Below, one piece after another: positions 11,076 through 40,165 of a stretch of DNA of 64,000 bases. The notes beneath the pieces are model-generated. The model had not been told where the DNA came from, ran no database searches, and saw only the letters and a list, made by a program, of their open reading frames with translations. The DNA is taken from positions 8,097 to 72,096 of the forward strand of contig JAQTQJ010000010.1 of the NCBI GenBank assembly GCA_028712255.1, written 5' to 3'. A program made the translations under genes and the position numbers. This DNA is from Candidatus Omnitrophota bacterium (GTDB taxonomy: Bacteria; Omnitrophota; Gorgyraeia; Gygaellales; Profunditerraquicolaceae). Each line of letters opens with the position of its first letter. The stretch's first letter is position 1.

Positions 11076-11103
11076 TTGACAAAAATAACCGTTATTGTAT
11101 ACT
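11076..11103 (+). promoter_or_regulatory. sigma70-like promoter upstream of the complex-I-like operon
   Basis: TTGACA at 11076-11081, a 16-nt spacer, then TATACT at 11098-11103, about 80 nt upstream of the first gene. Confidence 0.45.
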
Positions 11104-11185
11104 TTTTACTCAAGAAAGCCTTAATTTATTCTGAAGTTTATAGATAAAAGCTCCTTCCTTAAGCCAAAAATCTTAAAAAAACAAA

Positions 11186-13009
11186 ATGGGAAACCTGAAT
11201 ATTTTATTGTTTGATCCTCTTTCTTTATTTTTTCTTTTTGTTATCTTGGGGGTTTCTCTACCCTCTGCAATTTATTCCTGCGGTTACCTAAAAAATGAAT
11301 ATTCCCGCCGTAAGATAATTTTTGGTTGGTTATTGTTGCTTGCGTTTGTGTTCTCTATGGTCTTAGTAGTTATCGTAAATAATATTCTTATTTTCCTCGT
11401 GGCTTGGGAAATCATGTCTTTAGTTTCATATTTTCTGGTTGTTTTTGATTCAGAACATGAGAAATCCATTCAGGCAGGCTTGATTTATATCGTAATGGCT
11501 CATATTGGTACGGCCTTTTTATCGGCTGCTTTCCTGTTAATGTATAAATATGCCCATTCTTTTGATTTTTTTGCCGTTAAAAATGCCTGTCAATTAATGC
11601 CGGCTCAAGTTAAAAATATTGTTTTTCTACTGCTACTGGTTGGTTTCGGGACAAAAGCCGGTATTGTCCCACTGCATGTTTGGTTGCCCTATGCTCATCC
11701 GCAGGCCCCCAGCCATATTTCAAGTATTATGTCTGGTGTAATGATTAAAACTGCTATATACGGAATAGTCCGGTTTGTAATGTTTATCCTTGGCGTAGAT
11801 TCTTCTTGGTGGGGGATCTTGGTTTTGGTTCTGGCGGTTATCTCCTGCTTAGTAGGGGTGATTTATGCGCTTATGGAGCATGATTTAAAGAAATTACTTG
11901 CATATCACAGCGTGGAAAATATCGGAATAATTTTGTTAGGCGTGGGCCTGGCGATGTTTTTTGTCAGCATAAACCTGCCTTACCTAGTTATATTTTCTTT
12001 AATTGCCGGTTTATATCATTTGATTAATCACGCGATCTTTAAAGGGCTCCTGTTTTTATGCGCCGGTAGTGTTTATAAGGCTTGCGGAACTCGCGATATC
12101 GAGAAATTAGGCGGATTAATTAAAAAAATGCCGCAGACTGCCGCATATTTCTTGATAGGGGCGATGGCGATATCGGCATTGCCGCCGCTTAATGGATTTG
12201 TGAGCGAATGGCTTACTTTACAGGCATTTTTTCTGGGGGCTTTGAATACAGCCGGAGGAATTAAGCTTTTCTTGGGCCTCTGCGCGGCGATGCTGGCTTT
12301 AACAAGCGGTTTAGCAGCCGCCTGTTTTGTTAAAGCTTTTGGGATAACATTTTTGGCACAGCCCAGGAGTCATTATGCTGCCAGCGCCAAAGAGGTTTCT
12401 TTATCTATGAGGGCGGGGATGCTCTTTTTGTCATTTCTAATCGTTGTCTTTGGTTTGGCCGCGGCAGTGATTATGAAATTATTGGCAAAAGTTGCCAGCA
12501 GCGTAACAAACATTGATATAAGCAATATGGGTTTCTCTTTAAACAACTTTACTTTGAATCCTCAGATAGGTAAAAGTATTTATCTTTCTACGCCTTTGCT
12601 TGCGTTATGGTTAATTGTCCTGGGAGCTGGCGGTTTTGCCATCTATAGTTTGTTCGGTAAAAAGCGCCGAGTTTATAAAACTTGGGATTGTGGCTACTAC
12701 AAACTCGATTCGCGTAACGAATATACCGCAACTGCTTTTTCAAAGCCTTTTAGGATTGCATTCAGCTTTTTCTTACTTCCTTACCGCAAGACTCAAAAAA
12801 TCAGGGAGTCATTTTATCATGTTAAGTCTTTTTCCTATGAAACACATACTACTTCCGTATTTAAGAAGTATATTTATCTTCCGGTAATTGCCTGGGTTTT
12901 TAAGTCAGCCAAGTTTATGAGAAGAATTCAGCCCGGAAGCATCCATCTGTATCTATCATACATTCTTGTAACCGTGTTATTGTTGATTATGTTTATGTAT
13001 AAATTCTAA
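11186..13009 (+). CDS. HyfB/NuoL/MnhA-like proton-pumping antiporter subunit of a hydrogenase-4/complex-I-like module
   Basis: 607 aa, polytopic. Conserved …GIVPLHVWLPYAHPQAPSHISS… signature of the NuoL/M/N-Mrp antiporter family. Confidence 0.85.
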   Translation: MGNLNILLFDPLSLFFLFVILGVSLPSAIYSCGYLKNEYSRRKIIFGWLLLLAFVFSMVLVVIVNNILIFLVAWEIMSLVSYFLVVFDSEHEKSIQAGLIYIVMAHIGTAFLSAAFLLMYKYAHSFDFFAVKNACQLMPAQVKNIVFLLLLVGFGTKAGIVPLHVWLPYAHPQAPSHISSIMSGVMIKTAIYGIVRFVMFILGVDSSWWGILVLVLAVISCLVGVIYALMEHDLKKLLAYHSVENIGIILLGVGLAMFFVSINLPYLVIFSLIAGLYHLINHAIFKGLLFLCAGSVYKACGTRDIEKLGGLIKKMPQTAAYFLIGAMAISALPPLNGFVSEWLTLQAFFLGALNTAGGIKLFLGLCAAMLALTSGLAAACFVKAFGITFLAQPRSHYAASAKEVSLSMRAGMLFLSFLIVVFGLAAAVIMKLLAKVASSVTNIDISNMGFSLNNFTLNPQIGKSIYLSTPLLALWLIVLGAGGFAIYSLFGKKRRVYKTWDCGYYKLDSRNEYTATAFSKPFRIAFSFFLLPYRKTQKIRESFYHVKSFSYETHTTSVFKKYIYLPVIAWVFKSAKFMRRIQPGSIHLYLSYILVTVLLLIMFMYKF

Positions 13010-13010
13010 A

Positions 13011-13907
13011 ATGACAAAGGTTTTCTTTATTATCCTACAACTGATTTTATTCCTCTTGGCGGCCCCGCTTTTAAGCGGTTTGATCTCTAAGGTCAAAAAT
13101 AATATCAGGATGCGCCGTGGCCAGAGTATTTTCCAGCCGTATTACAATTTAGTAAAGCTTTTTTCCAAAGAAGAGGTAGTCTCAGGAGATTCTTCTTGGA
13201 TTTTTAAGGTTACCCCGTTTATCGTGTTTTCTTCGATGCTTACTGCGGCAATACTGATTCCTGTGTTTATCTTCAGCCCGATGCATCAGATGGGGGATTT
13301 TCTGTCCCTGATATTCATTTTTGCCTTGGGACGTTTTTTTATGGCCCTGGCAGCCTTAGATACCGGCAGCTCTTTTGGCGGAATGGGCGCATCAAGAGAA
13401 ATGTTTATTTCCAGCCTTGTTGAGCCGGCATTTTGCCTGGTAGTGTTTTGTGTATTTTTACAATTCGGCTCAACGGATATCGCGGTGTTTAGCGGGGTTC
13501 ATCCGGTTTCAATTTGTTCGTTTATCACCGCTATTGTTTTATTTATGGTTACTCTTGCCGAAACATCCCGGATTCCCGTAGATAATCAGGAGACGCACCT
13601 TGAATTAACTATGGTGCATGAAGCGATGGTTTTGGAATATTCGGGAAGATCTTTGGCTTTAATAGAGTGGTCTTCATATATAAAACAGATGATTTTGTTT
13701 TTCCTGATTGCGCAGATAGTTTTTCCGGTTAATTTTTCAGGTTTATGGATTTTATGGTATTTTGTCTGGATAATTATTATAGTAATTGCTGTGGCAGTGG
13801 TCGAGGTTTTTGTTGCCAAGATGCGTTTATTCAGAGTGGCTGATTTTTTAGGGTTTGCTTTTGTTTTAGGGGTTATCGCAGTTGTGTGCGCTATTTTAGG
13901 AGTCTAA
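13011..13907 (+). CDS. HyfC/HycD/NuoH-like membrane subunit
   Basis: 298 aa, about 8 TM, NuoH-family-like loops (…RRGQSIFQPY…). Positioned second as in hyf/hyc operons. Confidence 0.75.
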   Translation: MTKVFFIILQLILFLLAAPLLSGLISKVKNNIRMRRGQSIFQPYYNLVKLFSKEEVVSGDSSWIFKVTPFIVFSSMLTAAILIPVFIFSPMHQMGDFLSLIFIFALGRFFMALAALDTGSSFGGMGASREMFISSLVEPAFCLVVFCVFLQFGSTDIAVFSGVHPVSICSFITAIVLFMVTLAETSRIPVDNQETHLELTMVHEAMVLEYSGRSLALIEWSSYIKQMILFFLIAQIVFPVNFSGLWILWYFVWIIIIVIAVAVVEVFVAKMRLFRVADFLGFAFVLGVIAVVCAILGV

Positions 13908-13909
13908 CT

Positions 13910-14545
13910 ATGCAGGCAATAATTTTGTTCGGAGTTCTGGTCTTAACATACCTTATGTTTGTTGCCAAAAGGATGCCTGTTCTAATCCGTAGTTTTCGCT
14001 GCCAGTCGTTTTTTTTATTTTTGGTAACTTCGATAATGGCATTTGATGAGCACCAGCTTGACCTGTATATTGTTGCCGCGTTATTGTTCGTTATAAAAGT
14101 ACTCCTTATTCCATATTTATTATACAGGATTATGAAAAAGATGAGGGTTAGCGGAGATATTGGGTTATTTGTTAATGTTCAGTTATCTTTGTTATGTGCT
14201 TTAGGACTTGCATATTTAGCTTGGATTTTTTCTGCGCGCCTAGTTGCTCCCAGCAGCCAGGCGCAGATTAGCATTTTGACAATTGCTTTTTTTGCGGTAT
14301 TGGCAGGTTTATTTTTAATGATTTCCAGGATGAGCGCGCTTGCTCAAATTATCGGCTTATTGGTTATGGAGAATGGTTTATTCCTGTTGGCTTGTGCGGT
14401 TTCAGGTGGGATGCCATTTTTTGTAGAGATTGCTATCTTTTTCGATGTGTTTGTAAGCGTAGTAATTATGGGTTTTTTTGTTTACAGGATTAATAAACTT
14501 TTTACGCATATTGATGTGAATAAACTTTCAAACTTAAAAGGGTAA
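13910..14545 (+). CDS. HyfE-like small membrane subunit
   Basis: About 212 aa, polytopic, between the NuoH-like and NuoN-like genes as in hyf. The likely start is the ATG at 13910 rather than 13886. Confidence 0.6.
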   Translation: MQAIILFGVLVLTYLMFVAKRMPVLIRSFRCQSFFLFLVTSIMAFDEHQLDLYIVAALLFVIKVLLIPYLLYRIMKKMRVSGDIGLFVNVQLSLLCALGLAYLAWIFSARLVAPSSQAQISILTIAFFAVLAGLFLMISRMSALAQIIGLLVMENGLFLLACAVSGGMPFFVEIAIFFDVFVSVVIMGFFVYRINKLFTHIDVNKLSNLKG

Positions 14546-14547
14546 TT

Positions 14548-16005
14548 ATGCAAATATTTTTTATCTTAGGGATTCCGCTGTTGCTTTCCTTGGCGACTTT
14601 GTTAATCAGAAGGCAAAAGATTCTGGGGATAATCAATTGTATTGGTTATCTGCTAGTATTATTTTGTGGCGCAACTCTTCTAGGGAAAACATTCCTATCA
14701 AAAAGCACCATCTCTTTCTTTAATTTTATATACATGGATACATTAAGTACATTTTTTATCTTTGTTACCTCCATAGTTAGTTTTGTTGTGGCGTTATACT
14801 CTATTGGATATATAAAAAAGGATGTAGAGCAGGGGGTAATCTCCAGAAGAAAGGCCAGGATTTACTATCTTCTTTTTAATCTTTTTTGCTGTTCGATGTT
14901 TCTGGTTCCTGCGGTGAATAATTTAGGGATACTCTGGGTGGCCGTTGAAATGACTACGCTGATTTCGGCGTTTTTAGTAGGATTTTATAATACTAAAAAA
15001 TCAGTGGAGGCGGCCTGGAAATATATTATTATTTGTTCAGTAGGGATAATTTTTGCACTTTTAGGTACGATCCTTTTCTCTTATGCATTCTCTATTTCCG
15101 GGCTGGAAAAGAGCCTGAACTGGTCGTCCATGGTCCCTGTTGCGCACATATTAGACAAAAATATCCTGAAAATCGCTTTTATTTTTATCTTAGTTGGTTA
15201 TGGCACAAAGGCAGGATTAGCGCCCATGCATACGTGGCTACCGGATGCGCATAGTCAGGCGATAGCGCCAATCAGCGCCCTTCTTTCAGGAGTTTTGTTA
15301 AAGACTGCCATCTATGCAATATTAAGATTTGGTATTATTATAATACACGGAGTAGGGTTTGGGTATTTTAGCAACCTGATGATTTTGTTTGGAGCAATCT
15401 CTTTAATTATCTCAAGCGGTTTTATTCTGGTCCAGAAAGACCTCAAACGCCTTCTTGCTTATAGTAGTATTGAGCATATTGGTATTATCGCAATTGGTTT
15501 TGGAATAGGTGCTCCTTTGGCTATCATGGGCGCCCTGCTGCATGTTTTTAACCACGCAATAACCAAGTCGCTTATGTTTTTTGGAGCAGGTAATATCGTT
15601 AGCGTTTACAAAAAGCACAATATGAACGCTATTCGAGGAGTAATTAAGGCAATGCCGTTTACAGGCGTTACGGTCCTTTTGGGAGTGTTTGCTATTACCG
15701 GATTTTGCCCTTTTTCATTATTTATTAGCGAGCTTATGATTTTAACCGGCGCTTTCACAAGTGGTTCTTATTTAGTTGCGGGTTTATTATTATTATCCCT
15801 GGCAATTATTTTTGGGGCATTTATTTATCATTTTGGCAAAATGCTTTTTGGAAATCTTCCCAAAGAAATGATAGTTACAAAAGAGCCTTTAAGCGGTAAG
15901 TTTGTGTTTTCATTTTTATTATTTCTTATTTTAATTCCAGGAATTGGTTTGATTTTTATAAATAAGGATTTATTATGGATTGCCCAGAACTTATTTCAGA
16001 GATAA
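14548..16005 (+). CDS. HyfF/NuoN/NuoM-like antiporter subunit
   Basis: 485 aa. …GLAPMHTWLPDAHSQA… antiporter signature. Confidence 0.8.
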   Translation: MQIFFILGIPLLLSLATLLIRRQKILGIINCIGYLLVLFCGATLLGKTFLSKSTISFFNFIYMDTLSTFFIFVTSIVSFVVALYSIGYIKKDVEQGVISRRKARIYYLLFNLFCCSMFLVPAVNNLGILWVAVEMTTLISAFLVGFYNTKKSVEAAWKYIIICSVGIIFALLGTILFSYAFSISGLEKSLNWSSMVPVAHILDKNILKIAFIFILVGYGTKAGLAPMHTWLPDAHSQAIAPISALLSGVLLKTAIYAILRFGIIIIHGVGFGYFSNLMILFGAISLIISSGFILVQKDLKRLLAYSSIEHIGIIAIGFGIGAPLAIMGALLHVFNHAITKSLMFFGAGNIVSVYKKHNMNAIRGVIKAMPFTGVTVLLGVFAITGFCPFSLFISELMILTGAFTSGSYLVAGLLLLSLAIIFGAFIYHFGKMLFGNLPKEMIVTKEPLSGKFVFSFLLFLILIPGIGLIFINKDLLWIAQNLFQR

Positions 16006-17552
16006 AAAATAAATTACCGGATTTTTCTGCTTTATGTGTCCAGGAAGATTATCCGGACCAGGTATGTATAAAGGTGTCTCCTGAGATCTTCAAAGGCGCC
16101 TGTTTTACTTTGCACAAGATGCTTGCCTCACCCGTAATGATGCTTTTTGCCTTGGATGAGCGCAATGGCTTGAATAAATTCGTAATAAATTGTGTTTTTG
16201 TTAGTTATAGAAGAAGACAATGGATTACCGTCAGCACAGATATTTTACAGGAGAGTGCTTATTTTGATTCATTGGCAAAAACTATATATTCTGCCAGCCT
16301 TTTTGAAAGAGAAATTTGGGAGATGTTTGGTATCCAGGCAAGAGGTAATCCTGATTTAAGGCGGCTGCATTTACATGATGAAGTTTGGCCGCAGGAAAAT
16401 TATCCCTTACGTAAAGATTTTCAAAAAGTCCATGAAGGAAATTTAGGAGAGTATAAATTTAGCAGGGTAGAAGGAAGAGGGGTGTTTGAGGTTGCGGTTG
16501 GGCCGGTGCATGCCGGAATTATTGGCCCGGGGCATTTCCGCTTTAGCGTCTCCGGTGAACCGATTATTAACCTGGAGACCAGATTAGGTTTTACGCATCG
16601 GGGGGTGGAGAAGCTTTTTGAAGGGAAGCTTTATTCTCAGGCAATTAATTTATCAGAGAGTGTCTGTGGCAATTCGGTTTTTGCCCATAGTTTGGCGTTT
16701 GCGCAGGCGGCTGAGAAGATATCCGGATTAGTAATTTCTGCGCAAGTAGCTTATCTGCGGGGTATTTTTTTAGAGCTCGAACGTATGTACAATCATGTCA
16801 ATGATATAGGAGGAATTGCTATAGACGTTGGTTTTAGTTTTCCAGCTGCCTTTGCTTCGATTATTAAGGAAGCAATTCTTCAATTAAATGACTCTCTTTG
16901 TGCAAGCAGGTATCTTAAGAAAGTTAATCTGGTGGGGGGAGTTTCGGTAGACATTGATAGCGCTAAAAAATATCTGCTTCTTTGTTCGCTTAAGAACATA
17001 AAGAAAGATTTTAATGAATTGGTTAAAATATTAAATGATTCTGTTTCTTTTATGGATAGGGTGGATACAACAGGTATTCTAAAAAGAAAAACTGCCCAGG
17101 ATTTGGGTGTGGTTGGTTTGGTTGGCCGCGCATCGGGAATTTCTACGGATTTAAGGAGGTATTTTCCAGGGGTATATGAGGAAGCGAAATTTAAGATGAT
17201 CACTCAGGAATCCGGCGATGTTTTAGCCCGCTTAAAGGTTAGGGCTTTAGAATTTTTTGAATCATGTAGGCTGATTGAGGAATTTTCGGAAAAACTTGTT
17301 ACAGGGGGTAATATTAGGGTAAATCCGGAACAAAAGGGTGGCAGTGCTTTGGGTTACGTGGAGGGATGCAGAGGCCCCGTATTATATTGGCTTAAAACTG
17401 ATTCTGCTGGAGTAATTCAGAGGGCTAAGATTGTAGATGCCTCTTTTCATAACTGGCAAGGATTGACTTTTGCCGTATTAGGTAATATCATCCCGGATTT
17501 TCCGGTTTGCAATAAGAGTTTTAATTTGTCATATTCAGGTAATGATCTATGA
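15975..17552 (+). CDS. fused NuoC-NuoD / HycE-like large subunit with degenerate [NiFe]-binding motifs (Ehr-type)
   Basis: The N-terminal domain carries the NuoC signature (…EREIWEMFGI…). The C-terminal domain is NuoD/large-subunit-like (…RLGFTHRGVEKL…). The L1 motif is VCGNSVFAH, whereas hydrogenases have RxCGxCxxxH. The C-terminal DPCxxC is replaced by DASFHNW. Confidence 0.85.
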   Translation: MDCPELISEIKNKLPDFSALCVQEDYPDQVCIKVSPEIFKGACFTLHKMLASPVMMLFALDERNGLNKFVINCVFVSYRRRQWITVSTDILQESAYFDSLAKTIYSASLFEREIWEMFGIQARGNPDLRRLHLHDEVWPQENYPLRKDFQKVHEGNLGEYKFSRVEGRGVFEVAVGPVHAGIIGPGHFRFSVSGEPIINLETRLGFTHRGVEKLFEGKLYSQAINLSESVCGNSVFAHSLAFAQAAEKISGLVISAQVAYLRGIFLELERMYNHVNDIGGIAIDVGFSFPAAFASIIKEAILQLNDSLCASRYLKKVNLVGGVSVDIDSAKKYLLLCSLKNIKKDFNELVKILNDSVSFMDRVDTTGILKRKTAQDLGVVGLVGRASGISTDLRRYFPGVYEEAKFKMITQESGDVLARLKVRALEFFESCRLIEEFSEKLVTGGNIRVNPEQKGGSALGYVEGCRGPVLYWLKTDSAGVIQRAKIVDASFHNWQGLTFAVLGNIIPDFPVCNKSFNLSYSGNDL

Positions 17553-18064
17553 TACTTATACTAAAAAATAGGATATTGAAAGGTGTGGTTACTAGGCATA
17601 TTGAGCCGGGATTAGTCAGAGAACTAAACTCTACTGGGCTCAAACTAAAAGCATTGATCCGGAAAAAATTCGGCAAATCTTTGCATATACGCCAGGTAGA
17701 CACAGGTTCCTGCAGTGGATGTGAATCAGAGATCATTTCAACTAATAACCCGATTTATGATTTACAACGATTTGGCGTAAATTTCGTAGCTTCTCCTCGC
17801 CATGCGGATGCGCTTCTGGTTACCGGCCCTTTATCTAAAAATATGCTGGTTGCCTTGAAAAGCGCATATGAATCTATGCCTGAACCGAAATTTGTCATCA
17901 CGCTTGGAGATTGCGCATTAGATGGGGGATTATTCAAAGGTTCTTATTATATCGAAGGCCCGATAAAAGATATATTGCCGGTAGTGTTGCATATTCCCGG
18001 ATGCCCGCCATCGCCGTTAACAATTATCAAGGCGCTGCTGGATTTATTACAGAAAGAAAAGTAA
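17549..18064 (+). CDS. NuoB/HycG-like small subunit ([4Fe-4S] N2-type cluster)
   Basis: All four cluster cysteines are present (GSCSGCESEI, LGDCALDGG, PGCPPSP). The start overlaps the previous stop (ATGA). Confidence 0.85.
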   Translation: MILILKNRILKGVVTRHIEPGLVRELNSTGLKLKALIRKKFGKSLHIRQVDTGSCSGCESEIISTNNPIYDLQRFGVNFVASPRHADALLVTGPLSKNMLVALKSAYESMPEPKFVITLGDCALDGGLFKGSYYIEGPIKDILPVVLHIPGCPPSPLTIIKALLDLLQKEK

Positions 18065-18083
18065 GGTATAAGATAAAAATTAA

Positions 18084-18126
18084 GGGGGACGGTTCTCTTA
18101 AAAAAGAGAACCGTCCCCCTTTTTTT
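18084..18126 (+). terminator. rho-independent terminator closing the complex-I-like operon
   Basis: Perfect 16-bp stem GGGGGACGGTTCTCTT / AAGAGAACCGTCCCCC with a 4-nt loop. It is followed by T7 (18120-18126), 20 nt after the stop codon. Confidence 0.8.
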
Positions 18127-18165
18127 CATAATCGGTTTTACAATTACTGAAGTAGTTGTATAATA

Positions 18166-20733
18166 ATGCTTATGGCAGAAGAGCTACAAGACCTTAAAGG
18201 GCTTTCTGAAAAACAAGTTCAAGAAAGCTTAAAAAAATACGGGTATAATGAGCTCCCTTCCCAAAAAAAACGCAGTATTTTGGCAATTTTTTTTGGCGTA
18301 GTAAAAGAACCCATGTTGCTTTTATTAATTGGAAGCGGCATGGTTTATTTGTTTTTGGGTGAGATAAGCGATGCTGTTATGCTGCTTTCTTTTGTCTTGG
18401 TTGTCGTGGGGATCACTTTTTATCAGGAAAGAAAAACCGAAAGGACTCTGGAGGCATTAAGGGACCTTTCAAGCCCCAGAGCCCAAGTTATTCGCGACGG
18501 AATCCAAAAAAGGATTGCCGGCGCCCAGGTGGTCAAAGATGATATTATTATCCTTAACGAAGGCGATCGTGTCCCTGCCGATGCGGTAGTTTTATCATGT
18601 TCTAATTTATTAGTTGATGAATCCCTTCTTACAGGCGAATCCGCAGCCGTACGTAAATCCGAAAGTATAAACCAGGATACAATTAATCGGCCAGGCGGAG
18701 ACGACCTCCCCTTTGTTTATTCCGGAACTTTAGTTGTGCAAGGACACGGCATTGCAAGAGTGACTTCAATCGGAATCCATACTGAGATGGGTAAAATAGG
18801 AAAAGCTTTGCAAGGTATCCGTCAGGAAAATACCTTGTTACAGAAAGAAATAGGAAAAATTGTACGTAATTTTTCTATTGCCGGCGGGATTCTTTGTTTG
18901 TTGGTGACAATAATTTATGGTTTGACCCGGGGAAGCTGGTTAAACGGAATACTTTCGGGCCTGACCTTGAGCATGGCTATGTTACCAGAGGAGTTTCCGG
19001 TTGTTTTGATTATTTTTCTTACCCTGGGAGCTTGGAGGATCTCTAAAAGCCAGGTTCTGACCCGTCGTACTCCGGCTATAGAGACTTTGGGGGCAGCAAC
19101 GGTTTTGTGCACGGATAAGACAGGGACTCTTACGCTCAACGCCATGCATTTAACCTCTATGTGCGTTAATGGTATTCATTATGGAATTGACGTTAAAAAA
19201 TCAGAGGATTTGCCTGAGGCTGTCCATGATCTTATGGAGTATGCCATCCTGGCTAGCCAGAAAGATCCATTTGACCCTATAGAAAAAGAAGCCAAACGCC
19301 TGGGAGAATTCTATTTATCTGGCTCCGAGCATATTCATAATAATTGGAAGATTATCAAAGAGTATCCATTATCAAGGGAACTTTTGGCTTTGTCACATGT
19401 TTGGGAGTCTCCGGATAAACAAAATTATGTCATTGCTACTAAAGGTTCTCCTGAAGCAATCGCAGACCTTTGTCATTTTAACAAGGAACAACATATAGAA
19501 TTATTAAAATGCATAGAGGAGATGGCGAAGCGGGGATTACGTATCTTAGGGGTGGCTAAAGCATCTTTTAGGAAGAAGGAGCTTCCGGATATACAGCATG
19601 ATTTTGTATTCAGGTTTGTTGGGCTCCTGGGATTTGTTGATCCGGTACGTTCAACGGTGGCCGCGGCAATTGGCGAGGCCTATGATGCAGGGATGCGGGT
19701 GATTATGATTACTGGTGATTATCCCGGAACAGCTATTAATATTGCCAAAGAGATTGGTTTAAAGAATCCTGAATCATATATAACCGGAACTGAATTAGAG
19801 ATGATGGATCATCGCCAGCTGAAGGAAAAAATAAAGACAATTAACGTATTTGCCAGAGTGGTGCCTGAACAAAAACTGCTTATTATCGATGCATTAAAGG
19901 CTAATCAGGAAGTTGTGGCGATGACCGGAGACGGGGTTAATGATGCTCCCGCATTAAAGTCAGCGCATATCGGTATTGCTATGGGGCAGAGGGGGACTGA
20001 TGTTGCCCGCGAAGCTTCGGCATTAGTATTGCTTAATGATGATTTTTCCTCAATTGTTGCGTCAGTAAAACTTGGCCGGAGAATCTTCGATAATTTAAAG
20101 AAAGCCGTGGCTTATATTTTTGCTATACATGTGCCGATTGCAGGAATGTCATTTTTGCCGGTTTTATTTAATTTACCGATAGTACTTTTGCCTGCGCACA
20201 TTGCGTTTTTGGAATTGATTATCGATCCGGCATGCTCTACGGTCTTTGAGGCCTGCCCGGATGAAAAGAATATTATGAAAAGGCCGCCGCGTAATTTAGA
20301 GGAACCCTTATTCAGTAAAGAAGCTTTTATTTTTAGTTTTTTGCAGGGTTTAGGAATATTAATTGTTGTATTTTTAGTGTTTATAGTGGCGTTGTATTTG
20401 AAGAAAGGCGAGCTTGAAGCCCGTACCTTATCTTTTGCCACCCTGGTATTTGCAAATGTAATGTTAATCTCGACTAACCTTTCCTGGTCCAAAAACTTAT
20501 TCAGTATTATTAAATTAAAGAACAGAGCTTCTTGGATTGTAACGGTAGGAGCGGTGAGTGCCCTTCTTTTGGTTATTTATTTACCGCTGCTGCGCAATCT
20601 TTTTCATTTTTCAGTTTTGTCTGTAGCTGATTTAGCGGTTGCTCTCGCCAGTGGAATTATGAGTTTGTTGTGGTTTGAAGTTTTTAAGGGGATGAATAAA
20701 AAAATGGTTGTACCAAATTTATTAATTAAATAA
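18166..20733 (+). CDS. P-type cation-transporting ATPase (P2-type, Ca2+/Mg2+-ATPase-like)
   Basis: CTDKTGTLT phosphorylation motif, TGES-like actuator region, MITGDYPGTA and GDGVNDAPAL hinge motif. 855 aa with about 10 TM. Confidence 0.9.
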   Translation: MLMAEELQDLKGLSEKQVQESLKKYGYNELPSQKKRSILAIFFGVVKEPMLLLLIGSGMVYLFLGEISDAVMLLSFVLVVVGITFYQERKTERTLEALRDLSSPRAQVIRDGIQKRIAGAQVVKDDIIILNEGDRVPADAVVLSCSNLLVDESLLTGESAAVRKSESINQDTINRPGGDDLPFVYSGTLVVQGHGIARVTSIGIHTEMGKIGKALQGIRQENTLLQKEIGKIVRNFSIAGGILCLLVTIIYGLTRGSWLNGILSGLTLSMAMLPEEFPVVLIIFLTLGAWRISKSQVLTRRTPAIETLGAATVLCTDKTGTLTLNAMHLTSMCVNGIHYGIDVKKSEDLPEAVHDLMEYAILASQKDPFDPIEKEAKRLGEFYLSGSEHIHNNWKIIKEYPLSRELLALSHVWESPDKQNYVIATKGSPEAIADLCHFNKEQHIELLKCIEEMAKRGLRILGVAKASFRKKELPDIQHDFVFRFVGLLGFVDPVRSTVAAAIGEAYDAGMRVIMITGDYPGTAINIAKEIGLKNPESYITGTELEMMDHRQLKEKIKTINVFARVVPEQKLLIIDALKANQEVVAMTGDGVNDAPALKSAHIGIAMGQRGTDVAREASALVLLNDDFSSIVASVKLGRRIFDNLKKAVAYIFAIHVPIAGMSFLPVLFNLPIVLLPAHIAFLELIIDPACSTVFEACPDEKNIMKRPPRNLEEPLFSKEAFIFSFLQGLGILIVVFLVFIVALYLKKGELEARTLSFATLVFANVMLISTNLSWSKNLFSIIKLKNRASWIVTVGAVSALLLVIYLPLLRNLFHFSVLSVADLAVALASGIMSLLWFEVFKGMNKKMVVPNLLIK

Positions 20734-29147: not shown

Positions 29148-29834
29148 ATGATATATAAATTGAAGGTTTATGTAGAATTAGTCCGTCCTTTTACGCTGAT
29201 TGCTCCAATGGTGGGTTTTTTGTTAGGAGCGGTAATTGCCGCTGGAACTATGCCCAATCTTACTTGTTTATTGGGCGCTTTATCGGCAGCCATACTAAAT
29301 GGTGCCTCCAATGTGATTAATCAGTATTTCGATTTAGAGATAGATAAAATAAACAAGCCTTTTAGGCCGCTGGCTTCCGGGCGAATATCCAAGAGAGAGA
29401 TAATTAACTTTTCATTTATACTGTATTTTAGCGCGTTATTTTTATCTTCACTGGTAAACTTAAAATTATTTTTTATTATATTAATAACTGCAATTATTTC
29501 ATTTTATTATTCTGTTCCTCACCTTAGGGCCAAGAGATATCCTTTTCTTAGTAATCTTTTTATTGCTTTACCTAGGGGGATGCTTCTGATTGTTGCTGGT
29601 TGGAGTGTAAGTAAGCTAGTATTTAATATTCAACCATGGTTTATCGGACTGATATTTGCTTTATATCTTGCAGGCGCAGCCACCACAAAGGATTTTAGCG
29701 ATATAAAAGGAGATGGTAAATTCGGGATAAAAACGTTACCGGTCTTATACGGCGTAAAAAGAGCAACACAGATGATCACCCTATTCTTTTATCTGCCTTT
29801 TTACTTATTCCTCTGGGCATTATTATGTATATAA
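29148..29834 (+). CDS. UbiA-family aromatic/polyprenyl prenyltransferase (possibly frameshifted at its 3' end)
   Basis: First Asp-rich motif NQYFDLEID and second KDFSDIKGD. Seven or eight TM helices. The ORF stops at 29834, but a TM-like continuation (IIRPAALPLVLLTIWGPIYN*) is open in the +1 frame immediately after. Confidence 0.7.
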   Translation: MIYKLKVYVELVRPFTLIAPMVGFLLGAVIAAGTMPNLTCLLGALSAAILNGASNVINQYFDLEIDKINKPFRPLASGRISKREIINFSFILYFSALFLSSLVNLKLFFIILITAIISFYYSVPHLRAKRYPFLSNLFIALPRGMLLIVAGWSVSKLVFNIQPWFIGLIFALYLAGAATTKDFSDIKGDGKFGIKTLPVLYGVKRATQMITLFFYLPFYLFLWALLCI

Positions 29835-31131: not shown

Positions 31132-32691
31132 ATGAAAAAAATATTACTCATTAGGCCTCCACGCTATCTGTGGCCATTCATAAATGAATCTGATAATTTT
31201 TTACTCCCTTTAGGTTTACCTTGTATCGCTGGGGCGATAAGGTCAAAACTTCCTGATATAGAGGTAAAGATTATTGATTGCCCACCACAAAAAATCGGAT
31301 GGGAAACTCTGAGTAAGATATTAAGAGAAGAGAATCCGGATATAGTTGGAGCTGCAGAGGAGGCTCTTTATTGCCATGAAGCGGTAAGGTTATTTAATTT
31401 GGCCAAAGAGATTAATCCTGCTGTAATTACTATTGCCGGGGGGCATTTTTTTTCCTGGATGGTCGATCATAGTTTAACGGATTTTCCCATTGATTTTATT
31501 GTCAGATTTGAAGGTGAGGAGACAATTGTAGAATTAATCGAGGCGCTTAATGAGAAAAAAAACTTAGTTGAAATTAAGGGAATTGCTTATAAGCATAATG
31601 GCCAGATAATCAGGACGCCCTCCAGGCCTTTGATAAAAGATCTGGATATGCTTGCTTTACCCGCATTTGATCTTATGCCCATGGGGAAGTATTCACCGTT
31701 TGGTTATCTTTGGCCCCAGAGCGTTACTTTAGAGCATTCTCGGGGCTGTATCGATAGATGTAATTTTTGCTCTTTGTGGACATTTTGGGGCCAGCACCTA
31801 GAAACAGATATAGAAAAAGGCAAGCTGGATGTAGCCCCTAAATACAGAACCAAGAGCGTGAAGAGGACATTAGAAGAAGTAGATATCGTTTACAAAAAAT
31901 ATAATAGAAAATACATTATTTGGGCAGATCCTACTTTTAACGTTGATTCTAAATGGACCAATGATTTTTGCGACGGGTTGTTAAAAAGAAACTATAAAGA
32001 TCTGCATTGGTGGGCCTTTCTAAGGGCAGATTATCTATTGCGGGATGAGCGGGCAGGTATTTTGGAAAAAATGGTCCGGGCAGGATTAACGCACCCTCTT
32101 ATTGGCGTAGAGCGGGGCTGCACGGAGGATCTTAGAAAAATACGAAAATCTGTTTACACCCGTGATTTAGTAAAAGAAGTTTTTCTTATTTTTAAAAAGA
32201 AATATCCACAGGTATTCCGGCAAGGTACTTTTATTACCTGCCTGCCTTTTGATACCAGAGAGTCAATGTTTGATTTGGTGAAGTATGCCATTGAAATAGA
32301 CATAGATTATCCGGCTTTCCATCCAGTGGCCCCGGTTCCTGGAACATTTCTTTACCAAGATGCCTTAAAAAATGATGCTTTGGCGGAAAAAGATTTTAAG
32401 AAATACGATTGGGCTACTCCAATAATGCGTTCTAATAATGGATTATCAATGGAAGAACTTGGCAAGTTGAACATGGAGCTTAATAAGCGGTATATATTGT
32501 ATAGGCCTCACTGGTTAATAAGAGGCCTGTTCTCTCCCTATAAACATAAAAGAGGGCTTTATTGGTGGTTTTTCTTTAATACCATGAGGATGATTATCTG
32601 CGAAATCAGGGATATAATTTTAAGAAGAAAGAAATTTGCAGGTACTACCGGATTTATGCGCTTAAAAAAACCCGGTTGGTATGATAACTAA
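31132..32691 (+). CDS. cobalamin-binding (class B) radical SAM enzyme
   Basis: N-terminal B12-binding-like domain (…ITIAGGHFFS…). Radical SAM cluster motif SRGCIDRCNFCS (CX3CX2C). 519 aa. Confidence 0.85.
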   Translation: MKKILLIRPPRYLWPFINESDNFLLPLGLPCIAGAIRSKLPDIEVKIIDCPPQKIGWETLSKILREENPDIVGAAEEALYCHEAVRLFNLAKEINPAVITIAGGHFFSWMVDHSLTDFPIDFIVRFEGEETIVELIEALNEKKNLVEIKGIAYKHNGQIIRTPSRPLIKDLDMLALPAFDLMPMGKYSPFGYLWPQSVTLEHSRGCIDRCNFCSLWTFWGQHLETDIEKGKLDVAPKYRTKSVKRTLEEVDIVYKKYNRKYIIWADPTFNVDSKWTNDFCDGLLKRNYKDLHWWAFLRADYLLRDERAGILEKMVRAGLTHPLIGVERGCTEDLRKIRKSVYTRDLVKEVFLIFKKKYPQVFRQGTFITCLPFDTRESMFDLVKYAIEIDIDYPAFHPVAPVPGTFLYQDALKNDALAEKDFKKYDWATPIMRSNNGLSMEELGKLNMELNKRYILYRPHWLIRGLFSPYKHKRGLYWWFFFNTMRMIICEIRDIILRRKKFAGTTGFMRLKKPGWYDN

Positions 32692-32696
32692 ACTAA

Positions 32697-34157
32697 ATGA
32701 AATTATTAATATTAAATCCAATTTCCGATATAGCCACCCCCGGCCAAAGATACAGATCAGTAATATCTTTTGTTCCTCCTGTAGGAATAGCTTATCTGGC
32801 CGGCGCTTTAATCCAGGCCGGCATTGATGTCGATGTAGAAGATCAATTTGCCAGCGGCAATACCAATGAATATATCGCTGATAAAATCAGGCGCGAAAAG
32901 TATGAGCTAATCGGTATATCCTGTTTAACTCCCTCGATATCTAATATCAAAAGGCTGGCTAGGTTGATAAGAGAGATTAACCTGGATATAAAGATTGTCC
33001 TGGGGAATATCCATGCCACGGTTTTTCCGGAAGAAATGTTAAAGGAGGCAACCGGAGATATTGTTGTCCGCGGAGAAGGCGAATATGTCTTTGTCGAAGT
33101 GGTTAAAGCCATCGGCCAGAAAAAAAAGCTAGAAGAGGTAAAAGGCATAAGTTTTATTTCCAATGGAAGGATTGTGCATAATCCCGATAGCTATTTAACC
33201 GAAGATTTGGACCAAATACCTTATCCTGCTTGGCAGACATTTGCGTTTGATCTTTATAAAAGGTATCCTATGTTGGGCATATATAATGAAATAATACTGC
33301 CGATCCAGGCTTCCCGCGGCTGTACGCATAACTGTATTTTTTGTTCACAGAATATTATGTACAAAAAGCCAAGGTATCGAAATACCGAAAAAGTACTGGA
33401 TGAAATAGAGTATATGCACGAAAAGTATAAGATACGCTATTTTGGTTTCAATGACGCCTATTTTCCTTTTTCCGTCGAGCATGGTTTGGATTTTTGTGAA
33501 CGACTTATGAAAAGGGGGCTTCATAAAAAAATAAGGTGGATAACCGAGACTAGGGTAAATAAAGTTAATTTAGAGCTTTTAAAAAAAATGAGGCAAGCTG
33601 GTTTAAGGTTGATAATGTATGGTTTTGAAGTAGGCAACCAGTCGATCCTTGATAGCATAAGAAAACAGACAACCTTGAAGCAGGCAGAGGATGCGATGAG
33701 TTATACAAGAAAAGCCGGTGTGCAAAGCTTAGGCTTATTCATGTTAGGCCTTCCCCAAGATACGGAGGAAACCTGCAGGCAGACTATTGATTTTGCAATC
33801 CGCTTAAGCCCGGATATAGCTAAATTTAATATTACCATTCCCCAGCCGGGGTCAGAATTATATAACTCATGCAAAGACAGCTTAATAAACGCTAAACCCG
33901 AAGATTTTACAAGTTGGTCAGATTGGATCTCACCAAACGGCAGTATTATCTATGCTCCCAAAAATATCACAAGGGAAAAACTGTTATATCTGCAGAGAGA
34001 AGCAATGTTTAGGTATTACATAAATCCAAGACATATCTTAAGGCTGTTATTGAAAAGAGGATTTCATGTCAAGGATATGTATTTAGGCGCTAAATTAATC
34101 GTCGGGAAATACCTGAAAGAAATATTAAAATTTCAAAGTCGAACTCGGACGGCTTAG
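32697..34157 (+). CDS. cobalamin-binding (class B) radical SAM enzyme (close paralog of 46107-47573)
   Basis: B12-binding domain (…IVLGNIHATVF…). SRGCTHNCIFCS motif. About 55% identical to the 46107 ORF over the core by eye. Confidence 0.85.
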   Translation: MKLLILNPISDIATPGQRYRSVISFVPPVGIAYLAGALIQAGIDVDVEDQFASGNTNEYIADKIRREKYELIGISCLTPSISNIKRLARLIREINLDIKIVLGNIHATVFPEEMLKEATGDIVVRGEGEYVFVEVVKAIGQKKKLEEVKGISFISNGRIVHNPDSYLTEDLDQIPYPAWQTFAFDLYKRYPMLGIYNEIILPIQASRGCTHNCIFCSQNIMYKKPRYRNTEKVLDEIEYMHEKYKIRYFGFNDAYFPFSVEHGLDFCERLMKRGLHKKIRWITETRVNKVNLELLKKMRQAGLRLIMYGFEVGNQSILDSIRKQTTLKQAEDAMSYTRKAGVQSLGLFMLGLPQDTEETCRQTIDFAIRLSPDIAKFNITIPQPGSELYNSCKDSLINAKPEDFTSWSDWISPNGSIIYAPKNITREKLLYLQREAMFRYYINPRHILRLLLKRGFHVKDMYLGAKLIVGKYLKEILKFQSRTRTA

Positions 34158-34169
34158 GCTGGCGTTATA

Positions 34170-35867
34170 ATGGAAAAATCTTCAAGGTTTAAACATCAAT
34201 TTGCATTTCTCTTTTTAACCATTCTTATCCTGTTCCATATCATAAATAACTATATTTGGCTAACTAAGAACTCCGCTTTGGGCTTTGGAGATGCTTCATT
34301 GCACCTAGCCAATTCTTTAAATTTTTACAAATATCTTAAAGCAGACGAAGGGAATCTATTCGTAAGAATATTTGATTTATTCAATGGCAATAAAATAATA
34401 TATAGATTTTGGCCGCCTTTTGTCTATCTGGTTACCGCAGGATTACGTTTTATCTTTGGCCATTCACTTATAGCGGTAAAATTGGCGACTTCAAGTTTTT
34501 ATTTCATTATTCTTATTTTATCGGTTCATTTTTTGGGTTACTATTACCGAAATGTACGCACAGGTATATTCTCCGCATTTCTGGTTTCGATGTATGCCGG
34601 TGTTTTTGGCCTATCCAGGGAATACCTTTTAGATTTTCCTCTGGTTGCAATGGTTAGCTTATGTATACTGTTTTTTTTAAAAAGTGATGCATTTAAAAAC
34701 CGTTTATATGCCGTAATCTTTGGGTTAACCTTTGGCATAAGTATTCTTACTAAACCTCAGGCTGCTTTTTTTATTTTACCCGTTGTTCTATGTTTCTTAG
34801 CGGTAAGGACAAAAGATAATCGGCGAGTAAAATTAAAAAATTTTCTATTGGCAATATTAACCGCTTTAACAGTTACTTCTGTCTGGTTTTATGGTTTTTG
34901 GAGCGATAATCCGGATAAATGGTCGGTAAAAAACGCTTTTCTTAGCAGTATTTTTTCGACCTACACGGGCCAAGCAATCAACTTTTCTGCAGGCAAAGAT
35001 TTTTTTCCGGTAGTTGCTAATGCCAGCCTGATAACAAAATTATTCAGTATAAACAATTGGATCTATTATTTGAACGCTATTATTTTATATATCACCCCGA
35101 TTTTTGCTATTATTTTTGTTTTTAGCGTTTATTTTCTTTGTAAATCCCAAAAAGCTCCCAAAGAATTACTTATCTGGGTTATAGTCCCTTATCTCATATT
35201 TTCTTTCCTATCTCCGAAAGATGCGCGTTATTTATTCCCAGCATTTCCGGCAATAACCCTATTAACTGTTGTGGGAGTAGAAAACATAAAAAAACGGTTT
35301 TTTAAAAATTTAACTTTCATTTTAATATTTGTATTGGCCGTGGCTAATTATTATGCTTATTCTTACCTTGGCTCCGACCTTGTTTTCCGGTATAGCCTTA
35401 AGACCAGGCAATCTCTATTCTATGTCCATCCTCCGTTTAAAAGCAATTATCAGCATGTAGTAAAAAGATTTATGGAAGAGATAGGGGGAAGGGGGGATTT
35501 AAGCAAGGTAAATATCGGTATAATTTCTCCGCCAGGCGAATTTGATTTTAAAGGCGCGCCAATTCTGACATATTATATGGAATCCTATAAACCAGATCTT
35601 CCCTGGAAGTGGTCTAAAAAAGACCACTTTTTCAATGATTATAAAAAATATAATTTTTTAATGGTAGTCAACGATTCCGCTGCCGGTGGCTTGAATTTAA
35701 CCCAGCTATTATCCAACACCGGTTATCTAGGTCAAAATAATACTACAATAACAAAAGAAAAAATAAATGAAATTGTAGATTATTTTGAGTCGTTTAAGAT
35801 AATCGACAAAGATGAAATTATAAACGAATTTGATAAAAAGAATATTTTTCTTTACCAGGCCAAGTGA
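34170..35867 (+). CDS. polytopic GT-C-fold membrane glycosyltransferase (ArnT/PMT/GT39-like)
   Basis: 565 aa, about 12 TM at the N-terminus, with a large C-terminal soluble, probably periplasmic, domain. Paralogous to the next gene. The first-loop acidic motif is degenerate (GDAS). Confidence 0.55.
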   Translation: MEKSSRFKHQFAFLFLTILILFHIINNYIWLTKNSALGFGDASLHLANSLNFYKYLKADEGNLFVRIFDLFNGNKIIYRFWPPFVYLVTAGLRFIFGHSLIAVKLATSSFYFIILILSVHFLGYYYRNVRTGIFSAFLVSMYAGVFGLSREYLLDFPLVAMVSLCILFFLKSDAFKNRLYAVIFGLTFGISILTKPQAAFFILPVVLCFLAVRTKDNRRVKLKNFLLAILTALTVTSVWFYGFWSDNPDKWSVKNAFLSSIFSTYTGQAINFSAGKDFFPVVANASLITKLFSINNWIYYLNAIILYITPIFAIIFVFSVYFLCKSQKAPKELLIWVIVPYLIFSFLSPKDARYLFPAFPAITLLTVVGVENIKKRFFKNLTFILIFVLAVANYYAYSYLGSDLVFRYSLKTRQSLFYVHPPFKSNYQHVVKRFMEEIGGRGDLSKVNIGIISPPGEFDFKGAPILTYYMESYKPDLPWKWSKKDHFFNDYKKYNFLMVVNDSAAGGLNLTQLLSNTGYLGQNNTTITKEKINEIVDYFESFKIIDKDEIINEFDKKNIFLYQAK

Positions 35868-37567: not shown

Positions 37568-37574
37568 AGAGTCA

Positions 37575-38570: not shown

Positions 38571-38578
38571 AAAACGTT

Positions 38579-39301
38579 ATGTTTACTGGAAGCTTATCGG
38601 TAATTTTATTATCTTACAATGAAGCAGAAAACATTGATGAGGTAATCAAATCCGTATTGAATAAAATTTCTTCCATTATTTCAGATTTCGAGATTATCGT
38701 AGTCGATGACGGCTCAAAGGATAGAACTTTTGAAATCTTAAACGGTTTAAAGGATTACGGTAACCATATTAAAATTGTCCGCCATCTGTCAAATAAAGGA
38801 TACGGAGCGTCTTTCAAATCGGGATTAGAAAAATCAAAAAAAGATTATGTGATGATGATGGATGCAGACGGACAATTCGACATTACGGATCTCACCAAGC
38901 TTATTCCCTATTGTTTGTTATATGATATGGTAATAGGCTTTCGCATGAAAAGACAGGACCCGTTTTACCGGTGTATTTTAGGTAATATTTTTAATTTTAT
39001 TATAAAGATTATATTTAATATTAAGGTAAGAGATATAGATTGCGGATTTAAGTTTTTTAATAAAGAATTATTAAAAACATTGACTTTAAATTCGAACGGT
39101 TTTATTATTAATACCGAAATGGTTGTATTGGCCCTTAAAAACGGAGCAAAAATAAAAGAAGTAGGGATTTCCCACTACCCCAGGTTATATGGAAGGCAAA
39201 AGGTGTTGAATTTTAAAACTGTTTTGGCGATTGCTTCGGATTTATTAGCGCTTAAATGGAGATTGTTGTCCGGTAAAAACATAAAAAGCCAGCTAAAATA
39301 A
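38579..39301 (+). CDS. GT2 polyprenyl-phosphate sugar synthase (Dpm1/ArnC/GtrB-like)
   Basis: LSVILLSYNEAENI…VVDDGSKD and the DAD motif MMDADGQ. 240 aa, the soluble GT-A type used to charge undecaprenyl-P with a sugar for GT-C enzymes. Confidence 0.85.
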   Translation: MFTGSLSVILLSYNEAENIDEVIKSVLNKISSIISDFEIIVVDDGSKDRTFEILNGLKDYGNHIKIVRHLSNKGYGASFKSGLEKSKKDYVMMMDADGQFDITDLTKLIPYCLLYDMVIGFRMKRQDPFYRCILGNIFNFIIKIIFNIKVRDIDCGFKFFNKELLKTLTLNSNGFIINTEMVVLALKNGAKIKEVGISHYPRLYGRQKVLNFKTVLAIASDLLALKWRLLSGKNIKSQLK

Positions 39302-39374
39302 ATTAATATTTCCTGAAAATGTGGTATGATAACTTTAGTAAAAAGCCTTATTTAATTACGGAGCAAGTTAAATA

Positions 39375-40160: not shown

Positions 40161-40165
40161 CAAAT

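Follow-up and report, generated by a model that had tools for sequence, protein, structure and literature searches.

Complexes of the energy-converting-hydrogenase-related (Ehr) type are related to the group 4 hydrogenases but lack the CxxC ligands of the NiFe centre, and their function is unknown (PMC6349859, PMC10284858, 10.1101/765248). They were named in Geobacter and are also on record from Margulisbacteria (Riflemargulisbacteria), Saganbacteria, Melainabacteria, Elusimicrobia and comammox Nitrospira (PMC6349859, 10.1101/765248, PMC7894505, PMC10284858). The closest hydrogenases are those of group 4f, from which Ehr is set apart by the missing CxxC motifs (PMC10284858), and in Margulisbacteria RA1A the NuoB subunit is fused to a NuoI-like domain with two [4Fe-4S] clusters (PMC6349859, Supplementary Note 4). 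A six-gene operon in a 64-kb stretch of contig JAQTQJ010000010.1 from a Candidatus Omnitrophota bacterium (hereafter the window) was compared with these and other described systems, and very probably encodes a reduced Ehr-type complex.

The Cys-less large subunit, the NuoB-like, NuoH-like and HyfE-like proteins and the HyfB/HyfF antiporter subunits of the operon were the same as those of Ehr in Geobacter sulfurreducens (GSU0739-45) and elsewhere, and its composition matched that of Margulisbacteria RA1A and of Geobacter EhrA, EhrC, EhrL and EhrS. The fusion of NuoC to NuoD was shared with RA1A. An earlier reading made from the sequence without database searches (the sequence-only reading) had placed the operon in the Ehr class on account of a Cys-less group-4/NuoD-like large subunit, an intact NuoB cluster, a NuoH-like, a HyfE-like and two antiporter-like subunits, and this placement was upheld. 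Since every feature that defines Ehr was found, the operon belongs to Ehr of the type already known, and with Ehr previously described in sister phyla it is a further Ehr complex. Three traits distinguished the clade to which the window belongs. The NuoB-like protein was bare, whereas Ehr from RA1A, Firmicutes and hyperthermophiles carries a NuoI-NuoB fusion; the Glu of the β1-β2 loop, kept by other Cys-less members (102/105), was replaced by Gly; and the HyfB N-terminus was about 70 amino acids (aa) shorter than that of E. coli HyfB. The clade is therefore a reduced Ehr subtype, and is the most reduced Ehr found here, with a single predicted iron-sulfur (FeS) cluster and neither ferredoxin domain nor proton-relay Glu, but with every putative ion-path residue kept.

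Gene content, boundaries and related enzyme systems

Six open reading frames (ORFs) were located at 11186-18064 in one direction, with gaps of 1-2 nucleotides (nt) or short overlaps between neighbours. Their order was of the hyf B-C-E-F-G-I type, with the large and then the small subunit last, as follows:

11076..11103, + strand: promoter-like site, TTGACA-16 nt-TATACT, 11/12 consensus, in a 165-nt gap after a TPR gene
11186..13009, + strand: HyfB-like (NuoL-type) antiporter-like membrane subunit, 607 aa (NCBIfam HyfB, 4e-190)
13011..13907, + strand: HyfC/HycD/NuoH-like membrane subunit, 298 aa (Pfam NADHdh, 1.4e-34)
13886..14545, + strand: HyfE-like membrane subunit, 219 aa as ORF (NCBIfam HyfE, 3.5e-24)
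14548..16005, + strand: HyfF-like (NuoM/N-type) antiporter-like membrane subunit, 485 aa (NCBIfam HyfF, 1.6e-132)
15975..17552, + strand: fused NuoC and NuoD/HycE-like large subunit, 525 aa, [NiFe] site lost (Complex1_30kDa and Complex1_49kDa)
17549..18064, + strand: NuoB-like small subunit, 171 aa, a single [4Fe-4S] site, ferredoxin domain absent (Pfam Oxidored_q6, 2.4e-28)
18082..18121, + strand: intrinsic terminator at the operon end, 18-bp stem (10 GC pairs), 4-nt loop and TTTTTTT tail

Family assignments were made with Pfam and NCBIfam profiles on all six proteins, and the matches agreed with the HyfB-, HyfC-, HyfE- and HyfF-like subunits, fused NuoC-NuoD and NuoB-like protein named in the sequence-only reading. 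The NCBIfam equivalog scores for NuoD, NuoH, HyfB and HyfF were all under the curated cutoffs, so that the window proteins are relatives and not orthologs of the E. coli proteins; HyfB and HyfF were 38% and 43% identical to their E. coli counterparts. The HyfE-like ORF from GTG 13886 overlapped the upstream gene by 22 nt and orthologous ORFs were 633-636 nt long (211 aa); the true start is likely ATG 13910, directly past the upstream stop, giving a protein of 211 aa. An antisense ORF (16880-17203, minus strand, 107 aa) that seemed to be conserved in many loci was rejected as an artefact of its position opposite the conserved large-subunit gene.

The upstream promoter and strong downstream terminator proposed from the sequence alone corresponded to the 11/12 site and to the hairpin with its T-run, so that the coordinates given in that reading span both. 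The former was the top-scoring promoter-like match of the region, as a consensus match only, and the total of promoter-like sites in the region was no higher than in shuffled sequence, so only the position and quality of 11076-11103 argue for a promoter. A short block at about 11136-11160 (TATAGATAAAAGCTCCTTCC), which also occurred in a few relatives, might instead serve as the -10 region. A second promoter-like site (18137-18164) was located upstream of the downstream P-type ATPase gene. Given its own promoter-like site, its terminator and the separate promoter-like site for the next gene, the operon is a self-contained unit.

The hyf B-C-E-F-G-I order is shared with E. coli hydrogenase-4/FHL-2 (hyfABCDEFGHIJ) and FHL-1 (Hyc, PDB 7Z0S), whereas equivalents of HyfA, HyfD, HyfH and HyfJ were missing from the operon and neither a formate dehydrogenase nor hyp genes were linked. 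Compared with HycE, the large subunit was without NiFe ligands and without the 32-aa C-terminal peptide removed by HycI. Complex I (Nuo/Nqo) shared homologs of NuoB, C, D, H and L/M/N and the ligands of the N2-type cluster; as in NuoD, the window protein ended just past the L2 equivalent, and its Gly184 aligned with the Gly of the NuoD 'HG'. However, NuoA, E, F, G, I, J and K were absent, the quinone Tyr and His were gone, and scores were far under the NCBIfam NuoD and NuoH cutoffs. With these subunits and residues missing the complex is not an NADH:quinone oxidoreductase.

The Pyrococcus complexes MBH (6CFW) and MBS/Mbx (6U8Y) belong to the same superfamily, with an Mrp-like membrane arm and a NuoB/C/D/H-like module, but MbhL (5.7e-34) and MbsL (4.1e-20) were weaker matches than HycE (4.6e-55). 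MBH is a true four-Cys hydrogenase, the CGICSFSH of which aligned with the window L1 motif. In both MBH and MBS a NuoI-like subunit is present along with small subunits of the Mrp type; the window operon had neither. The seven-subunit Mrp antiporters (MrpA-G) have no redox arm and shared only the MrpA/D-type subunits with the window, with NCBIfam scores far under the cutoffs. The NuoB, NuoC-D and NuoH homologs are by contrast integral to the conserved cassette of the window, an arrangement that is compatible with Mrp-like transport.

Loss of the NiFe ligands and the remodelled large-subunit pocket

The large subunit was identical to MDD5109005.1 and matched PF00346 (Complex1_49kDa) with 118 bits as well as PF00329 (Complex1_30kDa). 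Its closest solved protein was E. coli HycE (7z0s_E), with E = 4.6e-55 over residues 81-524 by phmmer. At L1, the window SVCGNSVFAH aligned to HycE RVCGICGFAH such that Cys241 was kept and Cys244 had become Ser, which bore out the degenerate L1 motif (VCGNSVFAH) of the sequence-only reading. That reading had also taken DASFHNW for the C-terminal DPCxxC motif; this was a misassignment, as DASFHNW aligned with HycE AATYANW, and the HycE DPCYSC (Cys531 and Cys534) was found to align with the extreme C-terminal NLSYSG, followed by NDL and the stop. The window protein stopped 3 aa past the Cys534 position while HycE continues for 35 aa, part of which is the peptide that HycI removes. Of the four NiFe cysteines three were therefore gone, both C-terminal ones among them, and the claim that a [NiFe] site cannot form held with a single ligand (HycE Cys241) retained.

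The same substitutions were present across 189 relatives, with Cys531 replaced by Ser in 188/189, Cys534 by Gly in 185/189 and Pro530 by Leu in 188/189, so the loss of the ligands is not a sequencing error. The Cys244 position was occupied by Ser, Ala or Thr, and the protein always ended 3 residues beyond the Cys534 position with no tail that HycI could cleave. The HycE Cys241 equivalent was a Cys in just 29/189 relatives. Neither this retained L1 Cys nor the Cys at HycE-239, two residues upstream, that most relatives had in its place was accepted as a new conserved ligand, as 38 relatives had neither. Since no [NiFe] centre can assemble, the complex is not a hydrogenase.

Among 90 diverse Cys-less large subunits (representatives at 50% identity), the most conserved blocks were AGIIEPGHF of the β1-β2 loop, DFPLCNKSF and the terminal SGNDL, all three of which are elements of the former NiFe active site. 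The old active site, as judged from this conservation, is the most constrained segment of the large subunit and not a decaying relic. Two acidic positions were characteristic of Cys-less members: Asp at HycE-243 occurred in 90/105 of them against Val/Ala/Leu in four-Cys members, and Asp at HycE-294 in 87/105 against Gly in 15/20 four-Cys members. The latter corresponds to Asp284 of the window, which aligned with E. coli NuoCD Asp325; its treatment as a purely complex-I-like trait was weakened by the Asp that MbhL also has there.

More than 120 large-subunit clusters at 69% identity or above were found, nearly all of them 525 aa in length. The cassette was identified in Omnitrophota, Elusimicrobia, Margulisiibacteriota and Saganbacteria, and the order B-C-E-F-large-small was strict in all GTDB-species loci with enough flanking sequence. 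Across these four phyla, at 50-88% identity, dozens of genomes carried intact ORFs with steady lengths and overlaps. More distant Cys-less relatives (about 38% identity) from Actinomycetota/Mycobacterium sp. (L073-L077) were arranged as NuoB-B-C-E-F-large, and upstream they had an ArsR-type regulator. This order presumably resembles that of the M. tuberculosis 'formate hydrogenlyase-like' locus Rv0081-Rv0087, which would itself be an Ehr if Rv0087 were also Cys-less.

An exhaustive large-subunit search gave 7,158 representatives, 801 of which had E of 1e-30 or below, and returned hundreds of 50%-identity Ehr clusters. Among the best 150 representatives about 24 had all four cysteines (CGxC ... 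KSF[EN]LCYxCxD-stop) and most of the other full-length sequences were Cys-less (SGD[STEN] ... KSFNLSYSGND-stop). In a crude neighbour-joining tree of 127 representatives, E. coli HycE and HyfG fell outside, and a compact four-Cys clade adjoined one large Cys-less radiation that held the window. The phylogenetic placement suggested with the sequence-only reading thus stood in so far as the window lay within this radiation beside the four-Cys clade, in a tree that contained no named Ehr or 4f reference sequences and so lacked the known Ehr clades as anchors. A position next to four-Cys sequences agrees with the published closeness of Ehr to the group 4f hydrogenases (PMC10284858).

The four-Cys relatives with a short C-terminus are probably group 4f [NiFe] hydrogenases. 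They shared the B-C-E-F-large-small order, the KSFxLxYxxxD-stop ending without a protease-cleaved extension, the loop DNxxTHLELTMVHEAMxLEY of the NuoH-like protein and AGIIEPGHF in the β1-β2 loop. They differed in keeping CGxC ... CYxC, in having a ferredoxin-like module, and in the Val/Ala/Leu and Gly found at the Ehr positions Asp243 and Asp294. In one (P0141), a separate 114-aa gene for two [4Fe-4S] clusters was located between the large and small subunit genes, the hyfH position of E. coli, and another (P0145) had a Fer4-NuoB fusion. The C-terminus and NuoH loop shared with this sister clade, together with its ferredoxin-like module, argue that the scaffold descends from a redox-driven enzyme. 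A strict co-loss of the Fer4 subunit with the NiFe ligands was rejected, as Cys-less P0130 has a Fer4-NuoB fusion; Cys-less P0170, with NuoB first, had none. Likewise, His196 in the NuoH-like loop was discarded as an Ehr-specific change since the four-Cys relative L085 has it.

Ion path, electron input and alternative explanations

The residues expected of an ion path were kept throughout the membrane subunits. In the HyfB-like protein (NF005086), Glu of transmembrane helix (TM) 5, Lys of TM7, Lys of TM8, His of TM11 and Glu of TM12 were invariant in 49/49 relatives, and in the HyfF-like protein (NF005044) TM5 Glu, TM7 Lys and TM11 His were found in 62/62, TM8 Lys in 61/62 and TM12 Glu in 59/62. 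The NuoH-like protein (PF00146) had E138, D191, E194, E198, E204, E209 and Y210 conserved in 50-53 of 53 relatives, with its acidic residues aligned to NuoH E157, D213, E216, E220 and E228, and E162, E181 and D187 of the HyfE-like protein (NF008556) were invariant in 60/60. The HyfB-like protein was matched from model position 76 and tblastn covered HyfB residues 75-668, so that about 70 N-terminal aa are missing, probably two N-terminal helices. Its size was steady in the clade (592-635 aa), and full-length forms occurred in the four-Cys relative L085 (661 aa) and in NuoB-first relatives (642-689 aa).

The NuoB-like protein retained all four cluster cysteines, as had been noted from the sequence alone: C55, C58, C122 and C152 aligned with the cluster ligands of NuoB, HycG and HyfI and were invariant in 67/67 relatives. 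No Fer4 motif was found in it or in the NuoB-like ORFs of the clade (mostly 165-186 aa, with three longer calls to 225 aa), and no CxxCxxCxxxC motif in any frame of the window. Searches of the window by tblastn with E. coli HycF/HyfH/NuoI, HyfA/HycB, NuoE/F/G, NuoA/J/K, HypA-E, HycI and HycH/HyfJ gave no match, and the same queries within +/-10 kb of 79 related loci gave just sporadic weak ferredoxin-like matches and a NuoEFG-like match in 1/79 (L017). Hyp and HycI genes were accordingly absent from both of these stretches, and no fdhA-like gene was linked within the window. The lack of a NuoI/HycF-type ferredoxin subunit or electron-input module in the operon, as described in the sequence-only reading, is thus real across the NuoB-like ORFs of the clade.

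The conserved cluster cysteines, NuoH channel, antiporter residues and former active-site loops indicate that the complex is functional. On these alignments the operon encodes an intact, selected six-subunit member of the complex I superfamily, with one predicted FeS cluster and a full putative ion-translocation apparatus. Taken as a whole, a reduced Ehr complex working as a redox-coupled ion translocator was the best explanation (probability of about 0.6); redox-coupled ion translocation as the mode of action, taken by itself, was held tentatively, at somewhat under even odds. Within this scheme cluster turnover is inferred, as are the nature of donor, acceptor and transported ion and the direction of transport. 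The predicted membrane arm consists of one NuoH-like, one HyfE-like and two antiporter-like subunits, and the peripheral arm of the fused NuoC-NuoD-like and NuoB-like proteins only. With no NuoI-type relay, a donor would dock straight on NuoB/NuoCD and would most plausibly be a soluble low-potential ferredoxin. A one-electron redox event might then take place at the N2-type cluster, beside the remodelled and Cys-free hydrophilic pocket where NuoB, NuoD and NuoH meet. The cluster would pass electrons to an acceptor other than protons, bound where the NiFe centre used to be, and the change in charge or conformation that follows could move H+ or Na+ via the NuoH-like E-channel and the two antiporter-like subunits, and the reverse direction would also be possible.

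Several observations weigh against redox-coupled translocation. Neither the operon nor the window nor the +/-10 kb around the 79 related loci encoded a donor or acceptor, which leaves redox turnover putative, and in the literature searched no experimental data on any Ehr complex were found. The quinone-headgroup ligands were absent, with Tyr87 of Nqo4 replaced by Gly232 and His38 by Ile183 (T. thermophilus numbering). Invariant cluster cysteines would be equally expected of a purely structural cluster. The β1-β2 Glu was Gly in 181/195 clade members, in contrast to the other Cys-less representatives, and the window lineage additionally had Asn233 where Asp occurs in 183/195, along with Ser229 and Ala484. 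The lost Glu and the Asp233 to Asn change could mean a reduced or altered pocket chemistry.

The main alternative is an Mrp-like cation/proton antiporter, exchanging Na+ or another cation for H+ in a redox-independent or redox-gated manner, in which the NuoB/NuoCD cap would be a structural or regulatory relic and the cluster structural or a redox sensor. It fits the intact antiporter residues, the missing electron-input and acceptor modules, the loss of the Fer4 domain and of the proton-relay Glu in the clade, and the neighbours in relatives, which are often transporters (DMT_6, ACR3 and permeases, with TauE, SatP, CLC and EamA further off) and not redox enzymes. It does not readily account for former active-site loops that are the best-conserved segments of the large subunit, for invariant cluster cysteines or for new conserved acidic residues in the pocket. 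True Mrp antiporters operate without any NuoB/C/D/H module; the peripheral arm and NuoH, which together make up roughly 1,000 codons and are kept here under strict purifying selection across phyla, would therefore need a function. An antiporter of this kind was considered rather unlikely.

It is quite improbable that the operon supplies the membrane module of a larger complex with a catalytic partner encoded elsewhere, such as a formate dehydrogenase-Ehr. This arrangement has been proposed for Riflemargulisbacteria and Saganbacteria from fdhA and nuoE/F-like genes in Ehr genomes (PMC6349859), and Geobacter Ehr subunits were more abundant on formate (PMC7894505). However, no fdhA or nuoE/F/G-like gene was linked in the window, the NuoEFG-like match at L017 stood alone among the 79 loci, and the operon is bounded by a promoter-like site and a terminator of its own. 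Margulisbacteria Ehr, furthermore, takes electrons via the NuoI-NuoB fusion, which the clade does not have.

The public names of the large subunit imply a genuine respiratory complex I or a working [NiFe] hydrogenase, a reading that was refuted at the level of sequence and carries very little probability: PF00346, PF00329, PF01058, PF00146 and PF00361 were all matched, but complex I subunits were missing from the window and quinone ligands from the large subunit, the NuoD, NuoH and HyfB equivalog scores were sub-cutoff, three of the four NiFe cysteines were gone with the fourth non-conserved, and Hyp/HycI genes were absent from the window and from the 79 loci. A decaying remnant of a hydrogenase operon, which the combined loss of catalytic ligands, Fer4 module, proton-relay Glu and HyfB N-terminus might suggest, can be dismissed almost entirely given six intact ORFs of conserved length and overlap in dozens of genomes, invariant functional residues and a dedicated conserved leader RNA in many relatives.

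Leader RNA, gene neighbourhood and implications

A leader of about 110 nt was found directly upstream of the HyfB-like gene in 20/47 genome loci with enough upstream sequence, and about 100 relatives had it, including L004:4987-5113, L019:5072-5198, L008:5061-5187 and 77 metagenome loci (L088-L175). The conserved unit comprised, in this order, a promoter-like element (CTTGATTTT-N17-TAATAT), the 5' block TTCCGAGTTTTAAGGTGGGTCTGGA, which was invariant, a variable linker, ACGAGAAACCTTTG at the opening of a terminator hairpin with an 18-bp stem and a U-run, and then AGAGG and the ATG. The 5' block comprised 29 nt (UUCCGAGUUUUAAGGUGGGUCUGGA) and the terminator was opened by ACGAGAAACCUUUG. A metagenome scan for the 5' block gave 88 sites, of which 77 were followed by a HyfB-like gene and 5 were cut by contig ends; the others were 4 chance matches in GC-rich coding sequence, 1 degraded site and 1 (L133) before a DMT_6/DUF486 gene. 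In 81 distinct leader sequences the 5' block was invariant and the upper terminator stem covaried (GC/AU/GU and CG/UA). The leader had no match in Rfam and its single-sequence fold was no better than shuffles (z = -0.68). A simple antiterminator pairing was rejected as unconvincing, with only 5 bp (AAGGU:ACCUU) against the 18-bp terminator. Occurring essentially only before Ehr genes, the leader looks like a dedicated and so far unannotated candidate for a transcription attenuator or riboswitch.

This leader was not present upstream of the window operon, which is therefore regulated differently. For the window leader, Rfam returned no riboswitch, with sub-threshold matches to miRNA-precursor and plastid 3'-UTR hairpin families at or near the terminator (18074-18321). 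In 11 related loci the gene immediately behind NuoB encoded a DMT_6/DUF486 membrane protein (119 aa, PF04342, 1e-45; for example L019:12092-12451 and L005:12105-12461), and in L133 the leader preceded this gene directly. Every DMT_6/DUF486 locus with upstream sequence had the leader; the gene was absent from the window. An EamA (DMT) gene followed in the four-Cys relative L083.

A bolder and unlikely proposal is that loss of the cysteines created a new hard-ligand acidic site by the [4Fe-4S] cluster, formed from L1 Ser-Gly-Asp-Ser, the Asp at HycE-294, the kept β1-β2 Glu and L2 Ser-x-x-Gly, which would bind another metal, a cation or a polar substrate and make Ehr a distinct class of energy-coupling enzyme. 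Under the same proposal, expression in the Omnitrophota clade would be controlled via the dedicated riboswitch-like leader, the ligand of which would identify the Ehr substrate or signal.

Flanking genes were not conserved: when 1,470 flank proteins from the 79 loci were clustered, the most widespread family reached 11 loci, and a redox partner was not among the recurrent families. Small-anion and metabolite transporters recurred near Ehr and 4f-like operons in a few loci each, including ACR3 and an ArsP-like permease (near L008, L015, L016, L018, L027 and L068), TauE, SatP/YaaH, CLC, carbonic anhydrase and EamA (with L085 and L087 among the loci), and an ArsR-type regulator was present near L005, L010, L014, L028 and L047. 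The recurrence of transporters could reflect common descent and not function. Some genomes with Ehr had, within 10 kb, either another NuoB/NuoC/NuoD set along with a HycB-like ferredoxin or three additional antiporter-like genes (L007:18643-21575, L029:15769-20476 and L064:178-5008), and Ehr thus coexists with other enzymes of the complex I family.

In the window, the gene directly downstream of the operon (18166-20733) encoded a type-II P-type cation ATPase with a best, sub-cutoff match to PMR1-type Ca2+ ATPase, an adjacency that was not conserved in relatives. A short UbiA-family prenyltransferase (29148-29834, 228 aa) was under all specific NCBIfam cutoffs, and a U32 peptidase (48653-49726) with weak similarity to UbiU was far under them; the two genes do not suffice as evidence that the organism synthesises a quinone. 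The region 31132-48520 looks like a large cell-envelope modification island, with repeated cassettes of B12-binding radical-SAM enzymes (four paralogs at 31132, 32697, 41660 and 46107), PMT_2-type glycosyltransferases (34170, 35864 and 44544) and GDSL lipases (37575 and 47549), followed by Wzy_C and glycosyltransferase genes.

The leader RNA of the relatives could give experimental access, via ligand screening, to the physiological signal of Ehr. No mention of Ehr was found in two Omnitrophota genome surveys (including PMC10066038), and its prevalence in this phylum and the traits of the reduced subtype appear, within the literature covered, to be unreported. The public names of the large subunit, 'NADH-quinone oxidoreductase subunit C' (NCBI, PGAP) and 'Ni,Fe-hydrogenase III large subunit' (JGI), are both misleading. 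An Omnitrophota survey scores respiratory complex I by PF00346 alone (PMC10066038), a profile that the Ehr large subunit matches, and complex I has therefore possibly been over-called in this phylum; genomes with the Ehr cassette only may be given credit for respiration or H2 metabolism that they lack. Ehr is abundant in anaerobic and candidate-phylum bacteria and is placed at the evolutionary junction of membrane hydrogenases and complex I, where the reduced clade provides a minimal case for what the peripheral arm adds to coupling.

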